Made by a program: the position numbers and the translations under genes. From the NCBI GenBank assembly GCA_011600865.1, contig GCA_011600865.1_4890.1: DNA of 52,276 bases, one strand, 5' to 3'. Of the stretch, positions 46,054 to 52,276 are shown piece by piece. The notes under the pieces were generated by a model. The model was given only the letters and a program-made list of their open reading frames with translations, made no database searches and was not told the DNA's origin. Positions within the stretch are counted from its first letter, which is position 1; each line of letters starts with the position of its first letter. The stretch is from Escherichia coli (GTDB lineage: Bacteria > Pseudomonadota > Gammaproteobacteria > Enterobacterales > Enterobacteriaceae).

Positions 46054-46547
46054 TCCTTATTAATACGTTCGTTGATGTATTCAAGAGCTGCTTCAGGACC
46101 GTCTTCTTCAACAGTCCAGTCATAGATGAAGAACTGCTTGCTCATCAGAACCAGTTCGTCAATGAGGTTGTCATACTGGTTGTATAACGCCTCAAGATTT
46201 TCCACAACGCCAGGCATCTCGTCTTTTGTAGTTGCCAGTACCTTTTCAACAGGTGGCATACAAAAGATAACGATGGCGTTGTCACACATATCTGCTACAT
46301 GTGATACATTAATATTGATGACAGGCGTACGTTGAAGAACCAGACAATAGATATACTCAGATATAACAGCGCTGCGGTCATAAATACAATCGCCTTCCAA
46401 CGCGTTTTCTTTGGCCTGTTTAGCCATGACCGATTCGGGATCTTTGTCAACAGTATTATGAATAACACTGCGGCCAGTACGAGATTTAAGGAACTCAATA
46501 AGTGTACTTTTACCAGCATTGTCCGGGCCCTCGATTATGATGTTCAT
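46041..46547 (-). CDS. Thymidylate-kinase-like (deoxy)nucleoside monophosphate kinase
   Basis: P-loop IEGPDNAGKST at the N-terminus and a DR motif (YDRSAV) about 50 residues later, as in TMP kinases; 168 aa. Confidence 0.65.
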   Translation of the reverse strand: MNIIIEGPDNAGKSTLIEFLKSRTGRSVIHNTVDKDPESVMAKQAKENALEGDCIYDRSAVISEYIYCLVLQRTPVININVSHVADMCDNAIVIFCMPPVEKVLATTKDEMPGVVENLEALYNQYDNLIDELVLMSKQFFIYDWTVEEDGPEAALEYINERINKEWNK

Positions 46548-47218
46548 TTGTGTAAACTCCTGTACCGTTGTATCAGAACTTGTTTGTTATCAACATATTC
46601 ATCATTATATGTAAAGTCGCTATCAATGTACATCATTAATTTGTTACAATCCATTAAAATATCACTTGGACCTGAATGCTTAATTGTACTGATAAACATG
46701 TTGTCGATACGGAGCAAGTCTTTTGCATGTTCTTCAAGGGCCGAAAGTATCAATTCGGCACCACCTACAATCCAGACGTCAGTACCTCTGGATTCAAGGT
46801 CTGCTGCCATCTCACCCAAATTATTGTAGCCTTCTGAAGCCATAATCTGACGAGATACCGGCAGCAGTATTCTGTGGGCTGACATAGGCAGACTCATAGT
46901 CATATACGTGTTACGACCGGCTAACAATACACTATGCCCTACCATTTTTACCGTTACGTCTGCTATCATGTTTCGCAACTGGTCATTTGAGAACTGTCCA
47001 CGTAGTTGCTGATACGCATTATAGCCTGGTTCTGTCGCAATTGAATTAGTCATAGTCCTGAAAAAGAGCATGTCTGACGGACATTTCCAGGGGAGACCCG
47101 ATTTAGGAAGCGCACGGACCTCTTCCATGGTCTTGCACGAGTCCACCTGATGCTTCATGAACTCCGGGGACAACCCGAATTCCCCATTTTGGCCCATTGC
47201 AAAGATAATATTAATCAC
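46544..47218 (-). CDS. Dihydrofolate reductase-like protein
   Basis: N-terminal MINIIFAMGQNGEFG, a GLPW motif and a later IVGG motif resemble DHFR (compared from memory with T4 Frd), with insertions; 224 aa. Confidence 0.55.
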   Translation of the reverse strand: MINIIFAMGQNGEFGLSPEFMKHQVDSCKTMEEVRALPKSGLPWKCPSDMLFFRTMTNSIATEPGYNAYQQLRGQFSNDQLRNMIADVTVKMVGHSVLLAGRNTYMTMSLPMSAHRILLPVSRQIMASEGYNNLGEMAADLESRGTDVWIVGGAELILSALEEHAKDLLRIDNMFISTIKHSGPSDILMDCNKLMMYIDSDFTYNDEYVDNKQVLIQRYRSLHK

Positions 47219-47711
47219 CTAAAAAGTCCCCGTTGTCAGATAAAAGCGAATCCATAACGTCTTCAGACTGTGGTAGTATTACAGGATGATTGCCTGTTTC
47301 GATTTTTGGCTTATGTTTTGGCGCTTTTTTGCGCTCCAGGTACTCATCATGGGCCTTACAAATGGCATTTACGACGAAATCATGCTGATATGCGTACCAT
47401 TCGTCGTTTTCTGTGTCGTATTTAAGCCCTACATAGTTCATCAGCGACGACATTACGTGAATGCCTTCGTGGGAAATTGTGCTGTACTTAAGGTCGTCCG
47501 GGTGGTACAGTTCTACGACGATTAACAGGTACGGATAGTTAACGCGAGAGAACGTAAAAGTAGATGCATTACGCGTTTCCCGGTCATTCCAGTTGCCAAA
47601 ATCAGGCAAATCCATCAGTTTTTGAAGCTCTTCGTGCTCTTTTTCACTGCAAACGATAGCCAATTGAGGCGGATATGGCTCTAATTGAACAATTTTCATA
47701 ATGTTACCCAC
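47211..47711 (-). CDS. Hypothetical protein with an HExxH motif
   Basis: 166 aa; HEGIH could be a minimal zinc-hydrolase motif, but no other zincin features are evident. Confidence 0.45.
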   Translation of the reverse strand: MGNIMKIVQLEPYPPQLAIVCSEKEHEELQKLMDLPDFGNWNDRETRNASTFTFSRVNYPYLLIVVELYHPDDLKYSTISHEGIHVMSSLMNYVGLKYDTENDEWYAYQHDFVVNAICKAHDEYLERKKAPKHKPKIETGNHPVILPQSEDVMDSLLSDNGDFLGD

Positions 47712-47942
47712 AAGTAGGAGACCGTGAGGCCGTTTGATGATTCACATTAATGATAGCGCGTGGAGGAGAGAAAGTACACCACTTTTTAGTGAGTGTCTAC
47801 ACAATTTCCGAAAAATATAAAAAAATTTTAGAGGGGCCTCGTTTAGTATTGTGTTAAGCAAAAGGTTAGCTCCTGTCGTATCAATCTGATGATGATTGGT
47901 CCTGATAAGGAGAAAATAGAGAAAAAAATAAAAAATTTTGCT

Positions 47943-48184
47943 GGCTCCTGGCAGGTAGCACCCCTGCGAAATTACCCCCCGCCGCACCTATTTCGATTGA
48001 AATGATTACTCTGGTAACTATTGCGATTGATACAATTACCGGGTGAACTACTTCGGCCGTTATAGTACAAAGCGTCTATAATTCAGATTGAAATTATATT
48101 TTTATAAATAATTTCGCCGGCTCCGTTGAGTAGCACCCCTACGTTACTATAACCCCCGCCGACCATTTTGGATTGAGTAATTAC
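47943..48184. repeat. Two copies of an approximately 68 bp direct repeat in the large noncoding region
   Basis: Copy A 47943-48010 and copy B 48119-48184 share the blocks GGCTCC, GTAGCACCCCT, ACCCCCGCCG and GATTGA..ATTAC in the same order. Confidence 0.5.
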
Positions 48185-48240
48185 ATGTGAAACTATATCA
48201 ATTGCATATGAGAACCACTCTCAATCGCAAGTGATTATCA
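47993..48240. promoter_or_regulatory. Iteron-like array of GATTGA-N3-5-ATTA(C) motifs (candidate origin or operator sites)
   Basis: Direct copies starting at 47995, 48025, 48086 and 48171 and an inverted copy at 48222-48240, in AT-rich noncoding DNA between divergent gene blocks. Confidence 0.4.
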
Positions 48241-48251
48241 TTTCTAAAAAC

Positions 48252-48283
48252 TTGCATAAACTTACAAATAAAAGGTGTACAAT
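48252..48283 (+). promoter_or_regulatory. Candidate extended -10 promoter for the plus-strand early block
   Basis: AAGGTGTACAAT (TG + TACAAT at 48276-48283), related to the AGTGGTATAAT motif at the other plus-strand promoters; weak -35. Confidence 0.3.
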
Positions 48284-48547
48284 CAATAGGGATTGGACTA
48301 TTATATATTTATTGAATGTGATGACTGATTGACCAGTCAACTGGTCTGGAGGGTATTGGTATGGTTTAATTTGGGTAGGTAGTACTTAACCAGTCAACAG
48401 GTACATCTGGTAGATGTCAATGGTACCTTATGCTCTTTAACAATCTGGTGACATGTTTCTTGTTGATAGTAACACTAGTAATAGTTTCAACCAGTGACTA
48501 TTGGTAACAGTAGTCACAACTGGAAACTAATACAAGAGGTGACTATT

Positions 48548-48697
48548 ATGAAGGACAACTATACACTTTGGTATGATACCAATGAAGGGCTTTGGTGTGT
48601 CAATATCAATAATGGTCCAGTTCCAGACTTTGAGTCAATGGATGTGGAAGATTGTGTTGACTTTATCCAATCCCAAGTTGTTAAATATCAGGAGTAG
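48548..48697 (+). CDS. Hypothetical small acidic early protein
   Basis: ATG at 48548 with AGAGGTGA RBS; 49 aa. Confidence 0.5.
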   Translation: MKDNYTLWYDTNEGLWCVNINNGPVPDFESMDVEDCVDFIQSQVVKYQE

Positions 48698-48701
48698 TAA
48701 G

Positions 48702-48875
48702 ATGAAAGTTTTAGAATTGTCCCAAGAAGAACTGGAATTATTGGTTGACCAATTGGACACCACTTTATTTATGGAAAGTGACCTGTTGGAATATGACAGG
48801 GAGAGTGGAAGGGATGTCAAAGACCAGGAAGTGAGGGTCAAGTTACTCCAATCAATTCTGGATAAGTTGAAGTAA
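48702..48875 (+). CDS. Hypothetical small acidic helical protein (paralog family member)
   Basis: ATG at 48702 with AGGAG RBS; 57 aa; N-terminus MKVLELSQEELELLVDQL resembles the products of 49602-49760 and 50020-50193. Confidence 0.5.
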   Translation: MKVLELSQEELELLVDQLDTTLFMESDLLEYDRESGRDVKDQEVRVKLLQSILDKLK

Positions 48876-48879
48876 TTTC

Positions 48880-48915
48880 CAACAATGGGGACTTGGTAAA
48901 AGTCCTCATGATTGG
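48880..48915 (+). promoter_or_regulatory. Conserved intergenic hairpin element R1 (CAACAATG - 8 bp stem-loop - ATGATTG)
   Basis: CAACAATG at 48880-48887; stem 48887-48894 pairs with 48900-48907 (one G-U), loop ggtaa; followed by ATGATTGG at 48908. Confidence 0.5.
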
Positions 48916-48970
48916 ACTTACTTGTCAAGGATTGACACTTATCAAAAATTCTATCAATGAGGATACATCA

Positions 48971-49537
48971 ATGACTACTATCAACTATGTTTACCTGACT
49001 TCCGCCTTTTCTGTTGAGTCTGTAAAATCTGGTCTGACTACTGAAAGTCTTGGGACTATTGTAGTGCAGATGGATAGTCTTCAGTACTTTGCCAATAACC
49101 AAATCATTAAGATGATCAAGTCCCTTAATGATGAAAGTTCTGTAAGTGTCAAAGACTCAAAAGAAGTGCTGGTGAAAGCCCTGTTTGATGAGCTTAACCA
49201 ACTGGAAGTTGAAGAGGTCAAAGTTGTGGCATCAAGATCTTCCAATGGCGGTGCCCGGAAATCTTCATCTGGTCCATCAACAAAAGATACTTGTTATCTG
49301 GTGTTCAAAGATTACAACTTGATGGATAAAGAAGACTCAAAATTGGCACTTGTTGATGCCATGAAAGCCTGTGGGATGGAAGCGGATGACATCAAAGCCA
49401 AAAGAGTTATCCAGTCATATATGTCATACTACCGGAATGATGTAAAATCTGGTAAAGTGACTGAGGGCAAGTCAGTAACTGGTGAAAAACCTGAAACTGA
49501 AGAAAAACCTGAAACCCAAGAAACTACTGAAGAGTAA
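48971..49537 (+). CDS. Hypothetical protein with an acidic C-terminal tail
   Basis: ATG at 48971 with GAGGA RBS; 188 aa; C-terminus GEKPETEEKPETQETTEE. An in-frame ATG at 48908, right after hairpin R1, is an alternative start. Confidence 0.55.
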   Translation: MTTINYVYLTSAFSVESVKSGLTTESLGTIVVQMDSLQYFANNQIIKMIKSLNDESSVSVKDSKEVLVKALFDELNQLEVEEVKVVASRSSNGGARKSSSGPSTKDTCYLVFKDYNLMDKEDSKLALVDAMKACGMEADDIKAKRVIQSYMSYYRNDVKSGKVTEGKSVTGEKPETEEKPETQETTEE

Positions 49538-49544
49538 TTTTTGA

Positions 49545-49586
49545 GATGGCACTCAAGTAGTGCCATCAATTGAAATTATTCACAAT
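49545..49586 (+). promoter_or_regulatory. Intergenic hairpin element R4 (8 bp stem-loop followed by AATTGAAATTATTCACAA)
   Basis: Perfect stem atggcact / agtgccat (49545-49552 / 49558-49565), then the same 17-mer TTGAAATTATTCACAA that follows hairpin R3. Confidence 0.45.
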
Positions 49587-49601
49587 CAACAGGAGAGAAA
49601 C

Positions 49602-49760
49602 ATGCTTAAAATCAAACTGACCAAAGACCAGGCGATGGCTTTGCGGGATATGATGATCGAGTTAGAGAAGATGGGCACTTTTTCTGATAGTTCTCACGCT
49701 TCAACTCTTGACTATATTGTTGAAGCCATTGACGACAAATTTTCAGGTTCTGAGGAGTAA
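49602..49760 (+). CDS. Hypothetical small acidic helical protein (paralog family member)
   Basis: ATG at 49602 with AGGAGAG RBS; 52 aa; MLKIKLTKDQAMALRDMMIELE. Confidence 0.5.
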   Translation: MLKIKLTKDQAMALRDMMIELEKMGTFSDSSHASTLDYIVEAIDDKFSGSEE

Positions 49761-49765
49761 TCAAA

Positions 49766-50023
49766 ATGACTGATATTGAGATGAAAAAAGAACTGGACTT
49801 TTATGCCGAACAGTATTGGGCTGAATGGGATGAAGGTTCGCAGGAATTTGCGGAACTGGTGATAGATTCAGGAATTGATGAAGTGCGGGAACATTCCTAC
49901 ATCATCAACATGAATCTGGCGTCAATTATGGGAATAATCGCCAGCGAATTTTCTGATGGCGAGCGGGACCATGAAGACGTTGTAAGACTGGCAAAAGTTA
50001 TGGTTTGGGTGGATACATTATGA
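49766..50023 (+). CDS. Hypothetical acidic protein
   Basis: 85 aa; stop overlaps the next start in an ATGA arrangement. Confidence 0.5.
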   Translation: MTDIEMKKELDFYAEQYWAEWDEGSQEFAELVIDSGIDEVREHSYIINMNLASIMGIIASEFSDGERDHEDVVRLAKVMVWVDTL

Positions 50024-50193
50024 AAGACCTGAAATTGACTGAAGACGAATTGGCGCACCTGATTGAATTACTGGAATCAAATGCCCAAATCGTGAAAGAT
50101 CAAATATCTGACGCTGTTGGCGGTTCCAAAGAGTTTGACGACTTGATGGAAGACTTCAGGCTGACAATTCAGATCGCAACAAAGCTCGCATAG
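50020..50193 (+). CDS. Hypothetical small acidic helical protein (paralog family member)
   Basis: ATG at 50020 overlapping the upstream stop (ATGA); 57 aa; MKDLKLTEDELAHLIELLE. Confidence 0.5.
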   Translation: MKDLKLTEDELAHLIELLESNAQIVKDQISDAVGGSKEFDDLMEDFRLTIQIATKLA

Positions 50194-50196
50194 TTT

Positions 50197-50254
50197 CAAC
50201 AATGAACTATCCAAAATTGTGATAGTTCATGATTGAAATTATTCACAACAAGAG
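50197..50254 (+). promoter_or_regulatory. Conserved intergenic hairpin element R3 (CAACAATG - 8 bp stem-loop - ATGATTGAAATTATTCACAA)
   Basis: CAACAATG at 50197-50204; perfect stem gaactatc / gatagttc (50204-50211 / 50221-50228) with a 9 nt loop; same architecture as R1 and R2 but a different stem sequence. Confidence 0.5.
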
Positions 50255-50264
50255 AGAGAGAAAC

Positions 50265-50654
50265 ATGTACAGTGCAAAATGCGAAGATGGCACCTATACC
50301 GTATACTGTGATGGTGAAGTCCTCAAAGTTCTGCCAAACGCCTTCAAGTTTGAGCAATTCATGACGGTGTTGTGGGAGAACCAGGAGATTAGTCGGGAAG
50401 ACATTATTGACCTGATGAATCCTTTGATGGGGTACCATCCAATCCGCGAGTTTGACAGTCGTCCAACTTGGTATAAGCTGGAAGATGGTAAAGTCTGGGA
50501 ACAAGCCTGGGACAAATTTGAAGGTGGTTACGGCCACTGGACAGTTTATGTCGATGGCGATGATGCCCAACGTTACTGGGAGGCAATCAAAAATTGTGCG
50601 ACCCGGGACGTGACTGATCCGGAATATGACGAGTCAAAATTTGAGGTTAAGTGA
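50265..50654 (+). CDS. Hypothetical acidic protein
   Basis: ATG at 50265 with GAGAGAGAGA RBS; 129 aa. The ORF-track start at 50229 is the ATG right after hairpin R3 and would add a MIEIIHNKRERN leader. Confidence 0.55.
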   Translation: MYSAKCEDGTYTVYCDGEVLKVLPNAFKFEQFMTVLWENQEISREDIIDLMNPLMGYHPIREFDSRPTWYKLEDGKVWEQAWDKFEGGYGHWTVYVDGDDAQRYWEAIKNCATRDVTDPEYDESKFEVK

Positions 50655-50854
50655 TGCCGCTGGTCAAATTTACTACGGTAGACCTTGCCAATGGACTACC
50701 ACCCAAAGCTGAGCAAAAATTCTTGACAGTTGAGGAATGGAATGTCTGGTGCCAGTCAGCTCTAAAATCTGGGGCTAAACGCACAAATGGAGGAAAGGTG
50801 TTTACCCGCTTCAATAAAGAGTGTATAATAGTAGTACAGATAATGATTGAGTGA
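50654..50854 (+). CDS. Hypothetical small protein
   Basis: ATG at 50654 overlapping the upstream TGA (TGATG coupling); 66 aa, basic. Confidence 0.45.
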   Translation: MPLVKFTTVDLANGLPPKAEQKFLTVEEWNVWCQSALKSGAKRTNGGKVFTRFNKECIIVVQIMIE

Positions 50855-50856
50855 TT

Positions 50857-50892
50857 CAACAATGAGGATTTGCCAAAAGTCCTCATGATTGA
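50857..50892 (+). promoter_or_regulatory. Conserved intergenic hairpin element R2 (CAACAATG - 8 bp stem-loop - ATGATTGA)
   Basis: CAACAATG at 50857-50864; stem 50864-50871 pairs with 50877-50884 (one G-U), loop gccaa; followed by ATGATTGA at 50885. Confidence 0.5.
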
Positions 50893-51030
50893 ATTAACCC
50901 ACAAGTGGAGGCCTTATGTACCGCCGTAAACATGTTGTTGAGTATTCTGTTGTGAATCCTGCATATGCTGAAGGTCGGGCTATGAGGAAGCTGGTAGTGG
51001 TTTTTATGATAATTCTTATGGTATTGGCTT

Positions 51031-51276
51031 ATGTTTTCTAAGGATGACTTATATGACATTGCTCGACGTGTTAATCAACGCGATTTATCTGGTGTTACCG
51101 ATCTTTTTTCTGCCGGCACTTCTGACGATGCGGTATTACGCGAAGCGGAGCGGCGCCAAGCAGAAATACAAAGAACTGCAAGCTGCTGGAATTATCAACC
51201 CCCGAAAACTGTACCGTTAACCTGGGTTGACATGACAGTGTGGCTATTGAATAAACTTGGAATAAGGAGCAAATAA
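51031..51276 (+). CDS. Hypothetical protein
   Basis: 81 aa ORF with an ATG at 51031. Confidence 0.5.
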   Translation: MFSKDDLYDIARRVNQRDLSGVTDLFSAGTSDDAVLREAERRQAEIQRTASCWNYQPPKTVPLTWVDMTVWLLNKLGIRSK

Positions 51277-51455
51277 TGTTTAAATTCTTACAACGTAACC
51301 CTGTCAAAGGTGGCATGCAATACTGGGTGGACATCCATGGCGGTGAGTATATGATGATCGTCCGCGACGGTAAACCTGCTGAAAGCTCTTTCGCTAAAGG
51401 TTGCAACGTTTACAACCAATTGTTTGAGTTCCTGGTTGAAGGCGATTACTTGTGA
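51276..51455 (+). CDS. Hypothetical small protein (59 aa, below the ORF-track length cut-off)
   Basis: ATG at 51276 overlapping the upstream TAA (TAATG), strong RBS AAGGAG 7 nt upstream; reads MFKFLQRNPVKGGMQYWVDIHGGEYMMIVRDGKPAESSFAKGCNVYNQLFEFLVEGDYL. Confidence 0.5.
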   Translation: MFKFLQRNPVKGGMQYWVDIHGGEYMMIVRDGKPAESSFAKGCNVYNQLFEFLVEGDYL

Positions 51456-51637
51456 TTGGCTTAATCCTGGCAACATGCGTGGCTACTCATGATTGTAGTT
51501 ACAAAATTGTTGAATCCAAACCTGAATGGACTACCGTTGAACAATGTGCTACCGATAGTCCATACACCTTGCTAAATCTTGGTATTATCCCCGCCAAAAA
51601 TCAGCGTGTTATTTGTGACGAGCTGAAACAAGATTAA
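51452..51637 (+). CDS. Hypothetical small Cys-containing protein, possibly membrane or lipoprotein-like
   Basis: GTG start overlapping the upstream TGA; N-terminus MIGLILATCVATHDC is hydrophobic with a lipobox-like LATC; 61 aa. Confidence 0.4.
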   Translation: MIGLILATCVATHDCSYKIVESKPEWTTVEQCATDSPYTLLNLGIIPAKNQRVICDELKQD

Positions 51638-52065: not shown

Positions 52066-52276
52066 TTATTCAGCCTCGTATACAATTCAAAGTTTTGGTA
52101 ATCAGCAACATTGATAAATATTGTAGCACATCTATTTTATAGTGTAAACGTCTACAGATTTATTTATCAATCCGGTTTTTTATTATTTTTCGCCGGCGTA
52201 AATTTTTTTCATCCGGTTCTGATATTAATAAAGAGATAAACCGGATCATACATATAGACGCCTCTAAGTAGCTGTT

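Follow-up and report, generated by a model that had tools for sequence, protein, structure and literature searches.

A hairpin-divided block of small acidic genes in the predicted terminal repeat of a Rosemountvirus

Introduction

The closest described counterparts of the locus studied here are genes g11 to g03 of phage fHy-Eco03 (Kasurinen et al. 2021, PMC8145870) and 'cluster E' of phage S144 (PMC7432712), both of which consist of small genes of unknown function. The direct terminal repeat of fHy-Eco03 is 3699 bp long and contains the orthologous block, and the DNA of this phage is modified and resists most restriction enzymes (PMC8145870). A physical genome end of S144 lies in the gap adjoining cluster E, and the GC content of that cluster is low (38.6%) (PMC7432712). 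Hyperplastic regions with PeSL cassettes have been described in phages of the T4 type (Arbiol 2010, PMC2839356; Comeau 2014, PMC4122927).

The stretch of DNA analysed in this work (the window, 52,276 bp) belongs to a Rosemountvirus that is similar to Salmonella phage BP63/emhyr (96% identity). The early regions of T7 and T5 are also used for comparison. The class I early operon of T7 contains gene 0.3 (Ocr) and RNase III sites R0.3 to R1.3. The pre-early genes of T5 are located in its long terminal repeat, which is the first-step-transfer region. This pre-early region is associated with host takeover and anti-restriction, and A1 of T5 leads to host DNA degradation.

Results

Location and components of the block

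The block in the window and those of fHy-Eco03 and S144 are orthologous, being located in the same place between the DHFR-side divergent region and the convergent RusA gene. Genes C, F, H, I, J2, K, and L and the hairpin elements are common to the window and the fHy-Eco03/S144 block. By homology with fHy-Eco03, the gene block would lie inside a direct terminal repeat of about 3.7 kb that adjoins a physical DNA end. The inner repeat boundary, mapped from fHy-Eco03, falls near window position 47950. The region is present twice in the 57,020-bp record PP236111, and the window carries the repeat collapsed to one copy, its terminal-repeat location being assigned by homology only. Genes inside such a long direct terminal repeat would therefore be present in two copies per genome. 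The GC content of the window dips as it does in cluster E of S144 (0.37-0.41 at 48-50 kb and 0.44 at 50-52 kb).

The seven genes A to G are the proximal part of a 12-gene plus-strand operon of about 3.1 kb. The components of the operon and the elements that accompany it are as follows.

48276..48304, plus strand, candidate sigma-70 promoter from a consensus scan (TGTACA-17 nt-TATTAT)
48484..48532, plus strand, hairpin 1, located in the 5' leader and ending about 15 nt before the A ribosome-binding site (-24.5 kcal/mol, z=-5.0; covariance model 43.8 bits)
48548..48697, plus strand, gene A (49 aa, pI 4.05)
48702..48875, plus strand, gene B (57 aa, pI 4.34), paralog of F
48876..48922, plus strand, hairpin 2 directly after the stop codon of B (-20.9 kcal/mol, z=-5.0; covariance model 53.8 bits)
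48971..49537, plus strand, gene C (188 aa, pI 4.89), conserved core gene of the block with an acidic EKPET-repeat tail
49538..49584, plus strand, hairpin 3 after the stop codon of C (-16.7 kcal/mol, z=-4.4; covariance model 43.7 bits)
49602..49760, plus strand, gene D (52 aa, pI 4.59), sharing only the N-terminal module of B and F
49766..50023, plus strand, gene E (85 aa, pI 4.08, net charge -15), the most acidic of the set
50020..50193, plus strand, gene F (57 aa, pI 4.32), paralog of B, conserved in both genera
50193..50247, plus strand, hairpin 4, beginning at the last base of the stop codon of F (-22.7 kcal/mol, z=-6.1; covariance model 54.1 bits)
50265..50654, plus strand, gene G (129 aa, pI 4.43), made up of an N-terminal domain (residues 1-53) and a C-terminal domain (54-129)
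50651..50854, plus strand, gene H (66-67 aa, basic, pI 9.1), in the cassette of G and the same transcription unit
50853..50903, plus strand, hairpin 5, overlapping the last two bases of the stop codon of H (-20.6 kcal/mol, z=-7.4; covariance model 60.4 bits)
50916..51637, plus strand, remainder of the operon (I, the overlapping J/J2 frames, K, and L)

I is a membrane protein of 41 aa and J is a membrane-like protein of 55 aa. J2 (81 aa, ORF 51031-51276) is the orthologue of Gp05 of fHy-Eco03.

The candidate promoter was also identified in seven diverged relatives, where the -35 hexamer is invariant and the -10 hexamer is TATAAT, TATTAT, or CATAAT. This conserved sigma-70-like promoter would drive the operon. 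The operon is probably expressed early, as judged from its position and the consensus promoter. The initial annotation had called these genes early, and their position agrees with this, inside the long terminal repeat near the genome end and behind the conserved promoter.

Coding status and acidity of genes A to G

All seven short acidic ORFs that had been called between 48548 and 50654 were found at their coordinates and are real genes. They coincide with GenBank CDS emhyr_9 to emhyr_15, are preceded by Shine-Dalgarno sequences, and stay open in diverged relatives at 35-70% protein identity. All seven are under purifying selection, with dN/dS of 0.02-0.32 against relatives and substitutions concentrated at third codon positions. 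The value of A is 0.02 against ZCSE2 at dS 1.27.

The seven proteins have pI of 4.05-4.89 and net charges of -5 to -15 (-13 in the 129 aa of G). Asp and Glu make up 20-26% of A, B, D, E, F, and G and 16% of C, and the typical content genome-wide is about 13%. Only 36% of the crude ORFs in the window have pI below 5. Acidic tails had also been described among these proteins. This holds for C (...EKPETEEKPETQETTEE), and D and G have tails of only mild acidity.

Database and structure searches

The initial annotation could name no family for these proteins, and searches of Pfam, NCBIfam, PADLOC, and PHROGs gave the same outcome for all seven. Pfam and NCBIfam returned nothing informative for A to G, with no membership of the Ocr or ArdA families. 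None of the PADLOC defence profiles matched any of the seven proteins at E<=0.1. The PHROGs matches of A to G are to families of unknown function only, such as phrog_5461 for A (E=4.6e-11) and phrog_35350 for D, and B matched no PHROGs family. Sequence and profile searches of the PDB returned only noise for B, C, D, E, F, and G.

Every family of A to G is confined to the Rosemountvirus/Loughboroughvirus clade. A word-index search of 5.8 billion proteins with F, C, and G returned matches from this clade only, and a related-locus search with C found only five close loci. Thirty-two homologues of F at 70% identity or more were found, all within the clade. E has only six small relatives at 34-89% identity (phmmer, 1.84 billion representatives), and the contigs of two of them were examined, both of which carry the same syntenic block from the same clade. 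Large multi-repeat matches of E (P0072, P0074, P0075, and P0077) were taken as low-complexity artefacts with their sequences uninspected. The predicted model of G is confident (pLDDT 92). The models of G and C have no structural relative among solved structures, many anti-defence proteins included.

The orthologue of C has been listed as 'particle-associated' by mass spectrometry. A virion-associated role for C was rejected, as this orthologue is the weakest of 48 such matches with two peptides.

Paralogy of B, D, and F

A three-member paralog family had been proposed for B, D, and F. The relationship between B and F stands, and that of D extends to the N-terminal module and not to the whole protein. 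B and F are both 57 aa long and align without gaps (Smith-Waterman p=0.017, 5000 shuffles). Their family alignments match over 56 columns with an hhalign probability of 92% (P=5.9e-7), and B-F is the sole outlier among 91 family pairs. The B alleles of BP63 and of a sewage contig start with MKDLKLT and MKELKLTEDE, as F does. The paralogy is detectable only with profiles that include divergent alleles, and BLASTP among B, D, and F gave no significant match (E=0.14-0.97).

In whole-protein comparisons by hhalign, D gave no significant match to either F (0.7%) or B (0.9%). When a matrix derived solely from B and F was applied, the N-terminus of D scored 21.5 and ranked first of 561 Met-initiated open stretches other than B and F, with the runner-up at 10.2 (background -14.2 +/- 8.0, z about +4.5). 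Across all six reading frames, the motif MK.L.L(S/T).(E/D)(E/Q)(L/A), which was defined post hoc, was confined to the N-termini of B, D, and F, and none of 200 codon shuffles contained it. D has the N-terminal module of B and F (about 18 residues), to judge from these scores, but is no demonstrable paralog.

The DNA of B and F is 60-68% identical over the first 63 nt with many synonymous differences. This level of identity points to an old duplication, and a recent gene conversion between B and F was rejected.

Variation of the block among relatives

The gene content is mosaic among relatives, which is typical of accessory host-interaction regions. fHy-Eco03 has neither B, D, nor E, retains of G only the C-terminal domain, and carries C after H. 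In the Loughboroughviruses, B, D, and G are missing and two further genes (x6 and x16) are present. B is patchy among Rosemountviruses, being absent from yarpen and SE13 as well as from fHy-Eco03 and the Loughboroughviruses. A has a second allele class that is only 39-45% identical, and D has a 40%-identical allele in phage KE26. Residues 9-25 and 27-29 of F, reported as a 21-residue core, are invariant across the two genera.

The variation of the block is one of presence or absence and allele replacement, not of fast evolution. The earlier proposal that diversified paralogs adapt to variable host targets is not supported, given the purifying selection on all of these genes and the invariant core of F.

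Hairpin elements

The window has five copies of the hairpin element, all in the block and all on the coding strand, and antisense matches are weak. The hairpins consist of about 17-22 bp, with an inner stem of 9-10 bp and an outer stem of 5-10 bp separated by an internal loop, which is 2x2 in three copies. Each relative has two to seven sense-strand hairpins, and nearly all are intergenic just past stop codons or in the leader of the first gene. The stems covary: pairing extends to 88.5% of cells (72.7% in shuffles), both sides changed in 10 of the 12 pairs, and G-U pairs occur. The search of Rfam gave only a spurious sub-threshold microRNA match over hairpin 2. The hairpins are located at the boundaries of gene cassettes (A-B / C / D-E-F / G-H / I-L).

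The hairpins were rejected as intrinsic terminators because they have no U-tract and the scan did not flag them, with no plus-strand terminator-like site coinciding with any. They were also rejected as promoters of the PeSL kind, as they have no -10 hexamer. By inspection, no usable -35/-10 pair is present within the elements, and all promoter-like sites scanned on the plus strand are outside them. TTGAAA occurs in the 3' flank of the hairpins with no -10 at 16-18 nt and with a start codon within about 30 nt.

Toxicity of orthologous products

The products of fHy-Eco03 have been screened for toxicity in E. coli (PMC8145870). Neither the A-like g11 (36% identity) nor the product resembling the C-terminal domain of G was toxic in either assay (PMC8145870). 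The F-like g10 (71% identity) was non-toxic by its NGS ratio of 1.50 and borderline by its plating ratio of 0.46, and the H-, I-, K-, and L-like genes were non-toxic (PMC8145870). The only clearly toxic product of the screen was Gp05, the orthologue of J2, which was strongly toxic (PMC8145870). These results concern orthologues of 36-71% identity in E. coli DH10B only, in an assay that its authors describe as noisy. The screen took in no orthologue of B, C, D, or E, and B, D, and E are those that fHy-Eco03 does not carry.

Discussion

Comparison with known systems

Two published accounts of the orthologous block (PMC8145870 and PMC7432712) report neither the paralogy of B and F, the hairpin elements, nor the acidity of the products. 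The block is similar to the T7 early operon in its location at the leading end of a terminally redundant genome, in its small acidic products, and in its transcription by host RNA polymerase, which we infer here. Both also have interrupted stem-loops of about 20 bp without a U-tract, which are sense-strand specific and located in the leader and between cistron groups. The block differs from T7 in that its products have no sequence homology to T7 early proteins and the models of C and G have no fold homology. The repeat of about 3.7 kb would hold the whole operon, whereas that of T7 is 160 bp.

The block is similar to the T5 pre-early region in that its long direct terminal repeat would contain numerous small ORFs with no assigned role. 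It differs from T5 in that no homology was found, the Rosemountviruses are contractile-tailed and not known for two-step DNA transfer, and the orthologues tested were mostly non-toxic. As with PeSL cassettes, the conserved stem-loops occupy the gaps between stop codons and the ribosome-binding sites that follow. They border orphan genes that are non-essential, and the places where modules are shuffled among relatives fall at these stem-loops. PeSLs have a strong sigma-70 promoter inside, whereas the Rosemountvirus hairpins have no usable -35/-10 pair.

Proposed explanation

We give about even chances to the explanation that the block is an early terminal-repeat operon, divided by hairpins, whose products bind non-essential host proteins. 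The block would be read by host sigma-70 RNA polymerase from the conserved promoter soon after DNA entry. The five hairpins would split the polycistronic RNA into segments A-B, C, D-E-F, G-H, and I-L. By analogy with the T7 early operon, they are most likely RNase III-type processing sites or 3'-stabilising sites. At the DNA level, comparison of the relatives shows that the hairpins coincide with the sites of cassette exchange. Attenuation, or recombination purely at the level of DNA, would be an alternative role for them.

No match of the products A to G to any catalytic domain was found. They are most likely stoichiometric binders of non-essential host proteins (defence, nuclease, and stress systems) and not agents of host shut-off. 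B and F derive from an old duplication, and D carries their N-terminal module, which would be a strand plus a helix. The binding of non-essential host targets, anti-defence included, would be the likeliest role of A to G. An anti-defence function as such is a reasonable but unsupported guess.

Other explanations

Several of A to G may mimic DNA or specifically inhibit host immune systems (such as restriction-modification, RecBCD, CBASS, and Thoeris), with B, D, and F diversified against variable targets. We consider this unlikely. The high acidity (above all that of E, -15 in 85 aa, and of G), the early-compatible position, and the presence/absence mosaicism among close relatives are consistent with it, and so is the finding that orthologues are not clearly toxic, as expected of proteins with non-essential targets. 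The size of 49-129 aa, low pI, and charge also resemble those of Ocr, ArdA, T7 Gp5.9, Ugi, and AcrIIA4. However, sequence searches matched none of the products to these inhibitors (Pfam and NCBIfam for A to G, PDB for B to G), and the models of G and C matched none in fold and had no solved structural relative. The dN/dS values and the invariant core of F show nothing in the sequences that would suggest an arms race. Acidity is also common in this genome, where about 36% of ORFs are acidic anyway. Modification already shields the phage DNA from restriction, and a Ku/Gam-like protein for end protection is encoded elsewhere in genomes of the clade; both features would reduce the need for classical anti-restriction proteins or RecBCD inhibitors. 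A RecBCD inhibitor among A to G was downgraded on account of the Ku/Gam-like gene.

It is also doubtful that A to G are phage-directed regulators of an early-to-middle switch or accessory factors of DNA ends or replication. In our own reading, the N-termini of B, D, and F (a short strand, a Ser/Thr cap, and an amphipathic helix) and the 52 aa of D recall ribbon-helix-helix proteins. The strong conservation of A, C, and F across two genera would fit roles internal to the phage, and the block lies in the predicted terminal repeat beside RusA with palindromes in its leader. These points are set against the searches, in which no ribbon-helix-helix or helix-turn-helix match was found in Pfam even at E=10, and the PDB gave no sequence match and no ribbon-helix-helix by profile for D, B, and F. 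Acidic proteins are also unusual DNA binders, and B, D, E, and G are dispensable because they are missing in relatives.

Host takeover had been proposed for these genes. We regard it as very improbable that A to G are shut-off genes that inhibit essential machinery such as RNA polymerase, replication, or cell division. Their early-compatible position and small size would suit such a role, and one product of the operon, from ORF 51031-51276, has a strongly toxic orthologue in E. coli. However, this toxic gene is outside the seven. The orthologues of A, the C-terminal domain of G, H, I, K, and L were non-toxic, and that of F was borderline in one assay only. The proposal of host takeover is weakened by these results, which argue against host shut-off and leave the binding of non-essential host targets.

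The explanation that some of the ORFs are non-genes, with acidity as a by-product of purine-rich sequence, draws on the strong positive GC and AT skew of the region and the shortness of the ORFs, but it is effectively refuted already by the third-position excess with dN/dS of at most 0.32 in all seven, the ORFs kept open in diverged relatives, the Shine-Dalgarno sequences, and the detection of the orthologue of C by mass spectrometry.

Conclusions

The block is of an ordinary phage-region type, and it would be a routine orphan-gene early region if screens yield nothing. Rosemountviruses are widely isolated as candidates for biocontrol and therapy directed at Salmonella and E. coli, and roughly half of their genes lack a functional assignment. 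The block is the most variable part of the genome and the likeliest site of determinants of host range and counter-defence. It offers seven compact candidates for screens of anti-defence and host factors, one of which (G) has a confident predicted fold with no known relative. The conserved hairpins are a testable handle on operon expression and cassette exchange.

A more far-reaching claim, which we hold to be quite unlikely, is that the block is a battery of novel host-interaction or anti-defence proteins in exchangeable cassettes bounded by hairpins, including at least one new fold (G) and a duplicated helical binder (B/F). The same claim includes a double role of the hairpins, in the processing or stabilising of early transcripts and as recombination points. 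If it is true, a PeSL-like shuffling system would be present outside T4-like phages, in a terminal repeat and in two copies per genome.

Gene content and phage identity

The 3.6-kb stretch around the block (47700-51300) is matched by 62 phage records. The best matches are the Salmonella phages emhyr (96.2%), brunost, birk, and BP63, which all belong to Rosemountvirus, a genus of contractile-tailed phages of ~52 kb. A record named 'Listeria phage 220426122051' (PP583539.1) shares 96% identity with these Rosemountviruses of Salmonella and Escherichia, and it is probably mislabelled for host or a contaminant.

The seven ORFs listed in the initial annotation (A-G) have correct coordinates and correspond to the GenBank CDSs emhyr_9 to emhyr_15. 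They are followed by five further genes in the same strand block.

Genes of the block (A-G are each supported by an ORF and a GenBank CDS within emhyr_9 to emhyr_15)
A: 48548-48697, plus strand
B: 48702-48875, plus strand
C: 48971-49537, plus strand
D: 49602-49760, plus strand
E: 49766-50023, plus strand
F: 50020-50193, plus strand
G: 50265-50654, plus strand
H, I, J/J2, K, and L: 50651-51637, plus strand, next five genes

A plausible Shine-Dalgarno sequence precedes each of the seven genes. Substitutions between A-G and their relatives cluster at third codon positions (dN/dS 0.02-0.32), which indicates that all seven are genuine genes. Their products are acidic, with pI of 4.05-4.89 and with Asp plus Glu making up 16% of C and 20-26% of each of the other six. 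Acidity by itself is nothing exceptional in this phage. In a crude gene set covering the full window, pI is under 5 for 36% of ORFs and Asp plus Glu is typically ~13%, so seven acidic ORFs in a row represent an enrichment. H, I, J/J2, K, and L are basic or neutral, unlike A-G. The A protein is 96% identical to the copy in Loughboroughvirus ZCSE2 although synonymous sites are saturated (dS 1.27, dN/dS 0.02), and a second allele class in other relatives shares only 39-45% identity. Gene A thus combines extreme constraint with allele replacement.

Terminal repeat and candidate promoter

The Rosemountvirus fHy-Eco03 has direct terminal repeats of 3699 bp that carry g01-g11 (Kasurinen et al., PMC8145870). 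Using BLASTP, g11 corresponds to A (36%), g10 to F (71%), g09 to the C-terminal half of G (65%), g08 to H, g07 to C (66%), g06 to I, g05 to the ORF at 51031-51276 (69%), g04 to K (100%), g03 to L, and g02 to RusA. The inner repeat boundary of fHy-Eco03 maps to ~47950 in the window, within an 830-bp divergent intergenic region, and another record, 57,020 bp long, contains the region twice. In the related phage S144, restriction mapping placed a physical genome end in the gap adjoining 'cluster E', whose ten small genes are described as having no known function and a low GC content of 38.6% (PMC7432712). GC content dips likewise in the window.

Sequence elements upstream of A
47936-48009 and 48112-48184, plus strand: two copies of a direct repeat of ~74 nt
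48276-48304, plus strand: sigma-70-like promoter candidate, TGTACA-17-TATTAT
48329-48345 and 48386-48402, plus strand: palindromic motif TTGACCAGTCAAC / TTAACCAGTCAAC, in the leader between the promoter candidate and A

The promoter candidate is kept in seven diverged relatives. Early expression of the block is a reasonable inference from this conserved promoter candidate and the position of the block. The direct repeat (GCYGGCTCC...GTAGCACCCCT...CCCCCGCCG...GATTGA..ATTAC; alignment score 64 vs 16 +/- 3 in shuffles) coincides with the mapped inner repeat boundary, so it may have to do with the repeat junction or with how the terminus is recognised. The TTGACCAGTCAAC / TTAACCAGTCAAC palindromes lie 57 nt apart, the second copy and a flanking ACATCTGGTAGATGT palindrome are kept in most relatives, and they could act as an operator or fold into an RNA structure. 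Gene content also varies between RusA and the primase gene (52066-52276 and 1-113), at the outer end of the terminal repeat or close to it. This gap spans just ~320 bp in the window; in emhyr and birk it contains a gene of 507 nt, which the birk annotation calls 'anti-repressor Ant', and in fHy-Eco03 the 65-aa g01.

Intergenic hairpins

Five coding-strand copies of a hairpin element were identified in this block using a covariance model, and none elsewhere in the 52 kb.

Hairpin copies
48484-48532, plus strand
48876-48922, plus strand
49538-49584, plus strand
50193-50247, plus strand
50853-50903, plus strand

Wherever the block has an intergenic gap of more than 60 nt, the layout is the same, namely a stop codon, TTTCAACAAT, an inner stem, ATGATTGAAATTA(TTCACAA), a ribosome-binding site, and ATG. 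Each hairpin is an interrupted stem of ~17-22 bp (fold z-scores -4.4 to -7.4), with an inner stem of 9-10 bp that varies in sequence from copy to copy. In ten relatives, the covariance model detected 2-7 copies apiece on the sense strand, nearly all of them intergenic just 3' of stop codons or in the leader before the first gene. Pairing is kept in 88.5% of cells, compared with 72.7% in shuffles and 27-49% in slid controls; both sides have changed in 10 of 12 pairs, and G-U pairs are present. This pairing excess, covariation, and use of G-U pairs point to a structure formed by the sense-strand RNA.

The hairpins have no U-tract, no plus-strand terminator-like site from the scan overlaps any of them, and the element is absent from Rfam. 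The block is arranged as a promoter, a leader hairpin, and then groups of cistrons split by interrupted hairpins of ~20 bp. The early operon of T7 and its RNase III sites follow this order, and by analogy the element is a candidate site of RNase III-type processing.

Mosaic structure

The gene order is A B, C, D E F, G H, and I J K L in the window, where commas separate the units. In fHy-Eco03, KE26, and KM, it is A'' with F, D' or E', then x6, G' H, and C (x6 and x16 are two other genes). In Loughboroughviruses, it is A, C E F, x16 H x6, and I onwards. The moved or replaced units are mostly flanked by hairpin elements in the relatives compared, and the hairpins mark cassette boundaries. This resembles T4-type hyperplastic regions, where units bounded by stem-loops are shuffled through PeSLs (PMC2839356, PMC4122927). 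However, T4-type PeSLs are defined by a sigma-70 promoter, which the hairpin elements here do not contain.

B occurs in only ~23 of the 62 related records and D in ~45, none of them a Loughboroughvirus. G has two domains and its N-domain is absent in some relatives; fHy-Eco03, KM, and KE26 encode the C-terminal domain only (75 aa, start ...IREFDSRPT; noted alongside loci L003, L010, and L014). In a metagenomic relative, P0066, this domain is fused to a different C-terminal extension. The x6 family (ends ...DISNYTADDE or similar) takes differing positions in the block of relatives and is missing from the window.

Loci of the x6 family (acidic, ~100 aa) in relatives
L004: 4476-4781
L006: 6943-7242
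L010: 3053-3352
L014: 3732-4049

Paralogy of B and F, and the N-terminus of D

B, D, and F had been proposed as a three-member paralog family. The B-F pair stands, whereas D shares only the N-terminal ~18 residues. Pairwise BLASTP among the three gave nothing significant. B and F, of 57 aa each, align end to end without gaps, with a score above 98% of 5000 shuffles. Two divergent B alleles, BP63_12 and a 59-aa sewage-contig protein, start with MKDLKLT / MKELKLTEDE as F does. With both alleles in the profile, hhalign related B to F with a probability of 92% (P=5.9e-7, 56 columns). Among 91 pairs from 14 families of this block across relatives, B-F is the sole outlier (next P 0.01). In their first 63 nt, the B and F genes are 60-68% identical and differ at synonymous sites too, which speaks for an old duplication and against recent gene conversion.

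D as a whole protein has no significant relation to B or F (probabilities of 0.7% and 0.9%). Its N-terminus, however, does bear the same module as B and F. Scored with a position matrix derived from B and F alone, D came top when compared with 561 other open stretches that start with Met in the six-frame translation (21.5 vs 10.2 for the next best; background -14.2 +/- 8.0).

Function of the acidic products

A-G match no named family, as previously noted. PHROGs returned only families of unknown function, with no match for B; Pfam, NCBIfam, and PADLOC gave nothing for A-G, and PDB sequence and profile searches of B-G gave only noise. Searches of F, C, and G against 5.8 billion proteins and of E against 1.84 billion representatives found relatives from this phage clade only, and both traced divergent relatives of E occupy the same syntenic position.

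That A-G are anti-defence proteins or DNA mimics has no positive evidence in its favour, and we regard it as possible but unlikely. That they are regulators directed at the phage itself is about equally likely. The DNA of fHy-Eco03 is resistant to 9 of 10 restriction enzymes, and S144 encodes a Ku/Gam-like protein elsewhere in its genome. DHFR-like (46544-47218, minus strand) and thymidylate-kinase-like genes lie just beyond the divergent intergenic region; taken with reports that restriction enzymes fail to cut much of the DNA of fHy-Eco03 and S144, these genes suggest a DNA modification pathway in the clade.

Host shut-off by A-G, and with it the host-takeover role proposed in the initial annotation, is disfavoured by the toxicity data of the fHy-Eco03 orthologues in E. 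coli DH10B. In that screen, g11 (A-like), g09 (like the C-terminus of G), g08, g06, g04, and g03 were non-toxic; for the F-like g10, NGS gave a non-toxic ratio of 1.50 and plating a borderline 0.46. The C-like g07 was left out of the screen on account of two peptides detected in virion preparations. The sole clearly toxic product, Gp05, corresponds to the ORF at 51031-51276, downstream of A-G (48548-50654).

Overlapping frames at the Gp05 locus
J2: 51031-51276, plus strand, 81 aa, frame annotated in fHy-Eco03 as toxic Gp05
J: 51053-51220, plus strand, 55 aa, membrane-like, with a good Shine-Dalgarno sequence, frame annotated in emhyr

Both frames are open in all relatives examined. Substitutions in the overlap fall at third positions of J (92 vs 49 and 44), and the 3' tail of J2 has a third-position excess of its own. 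The published 'Gp05' toxicity may therefore be due to the embedded membrane peptide, or J and J2 may be linked by overlap or frameshifting.

Regions of this kind are well known from the T7 early genes, the T5 pre-early genes, and the T4 hyperplastic regions; the gene members of this one are new and uncharacterised. The reading that we favour, with middling confidence, is that the block is an accessory operon in the terminal repeat, probably expressed early, whose small acidic products would bind non-essential host targets and whose transcript would be segmented by the conserved hairpins that also mark the cassette boundaries.
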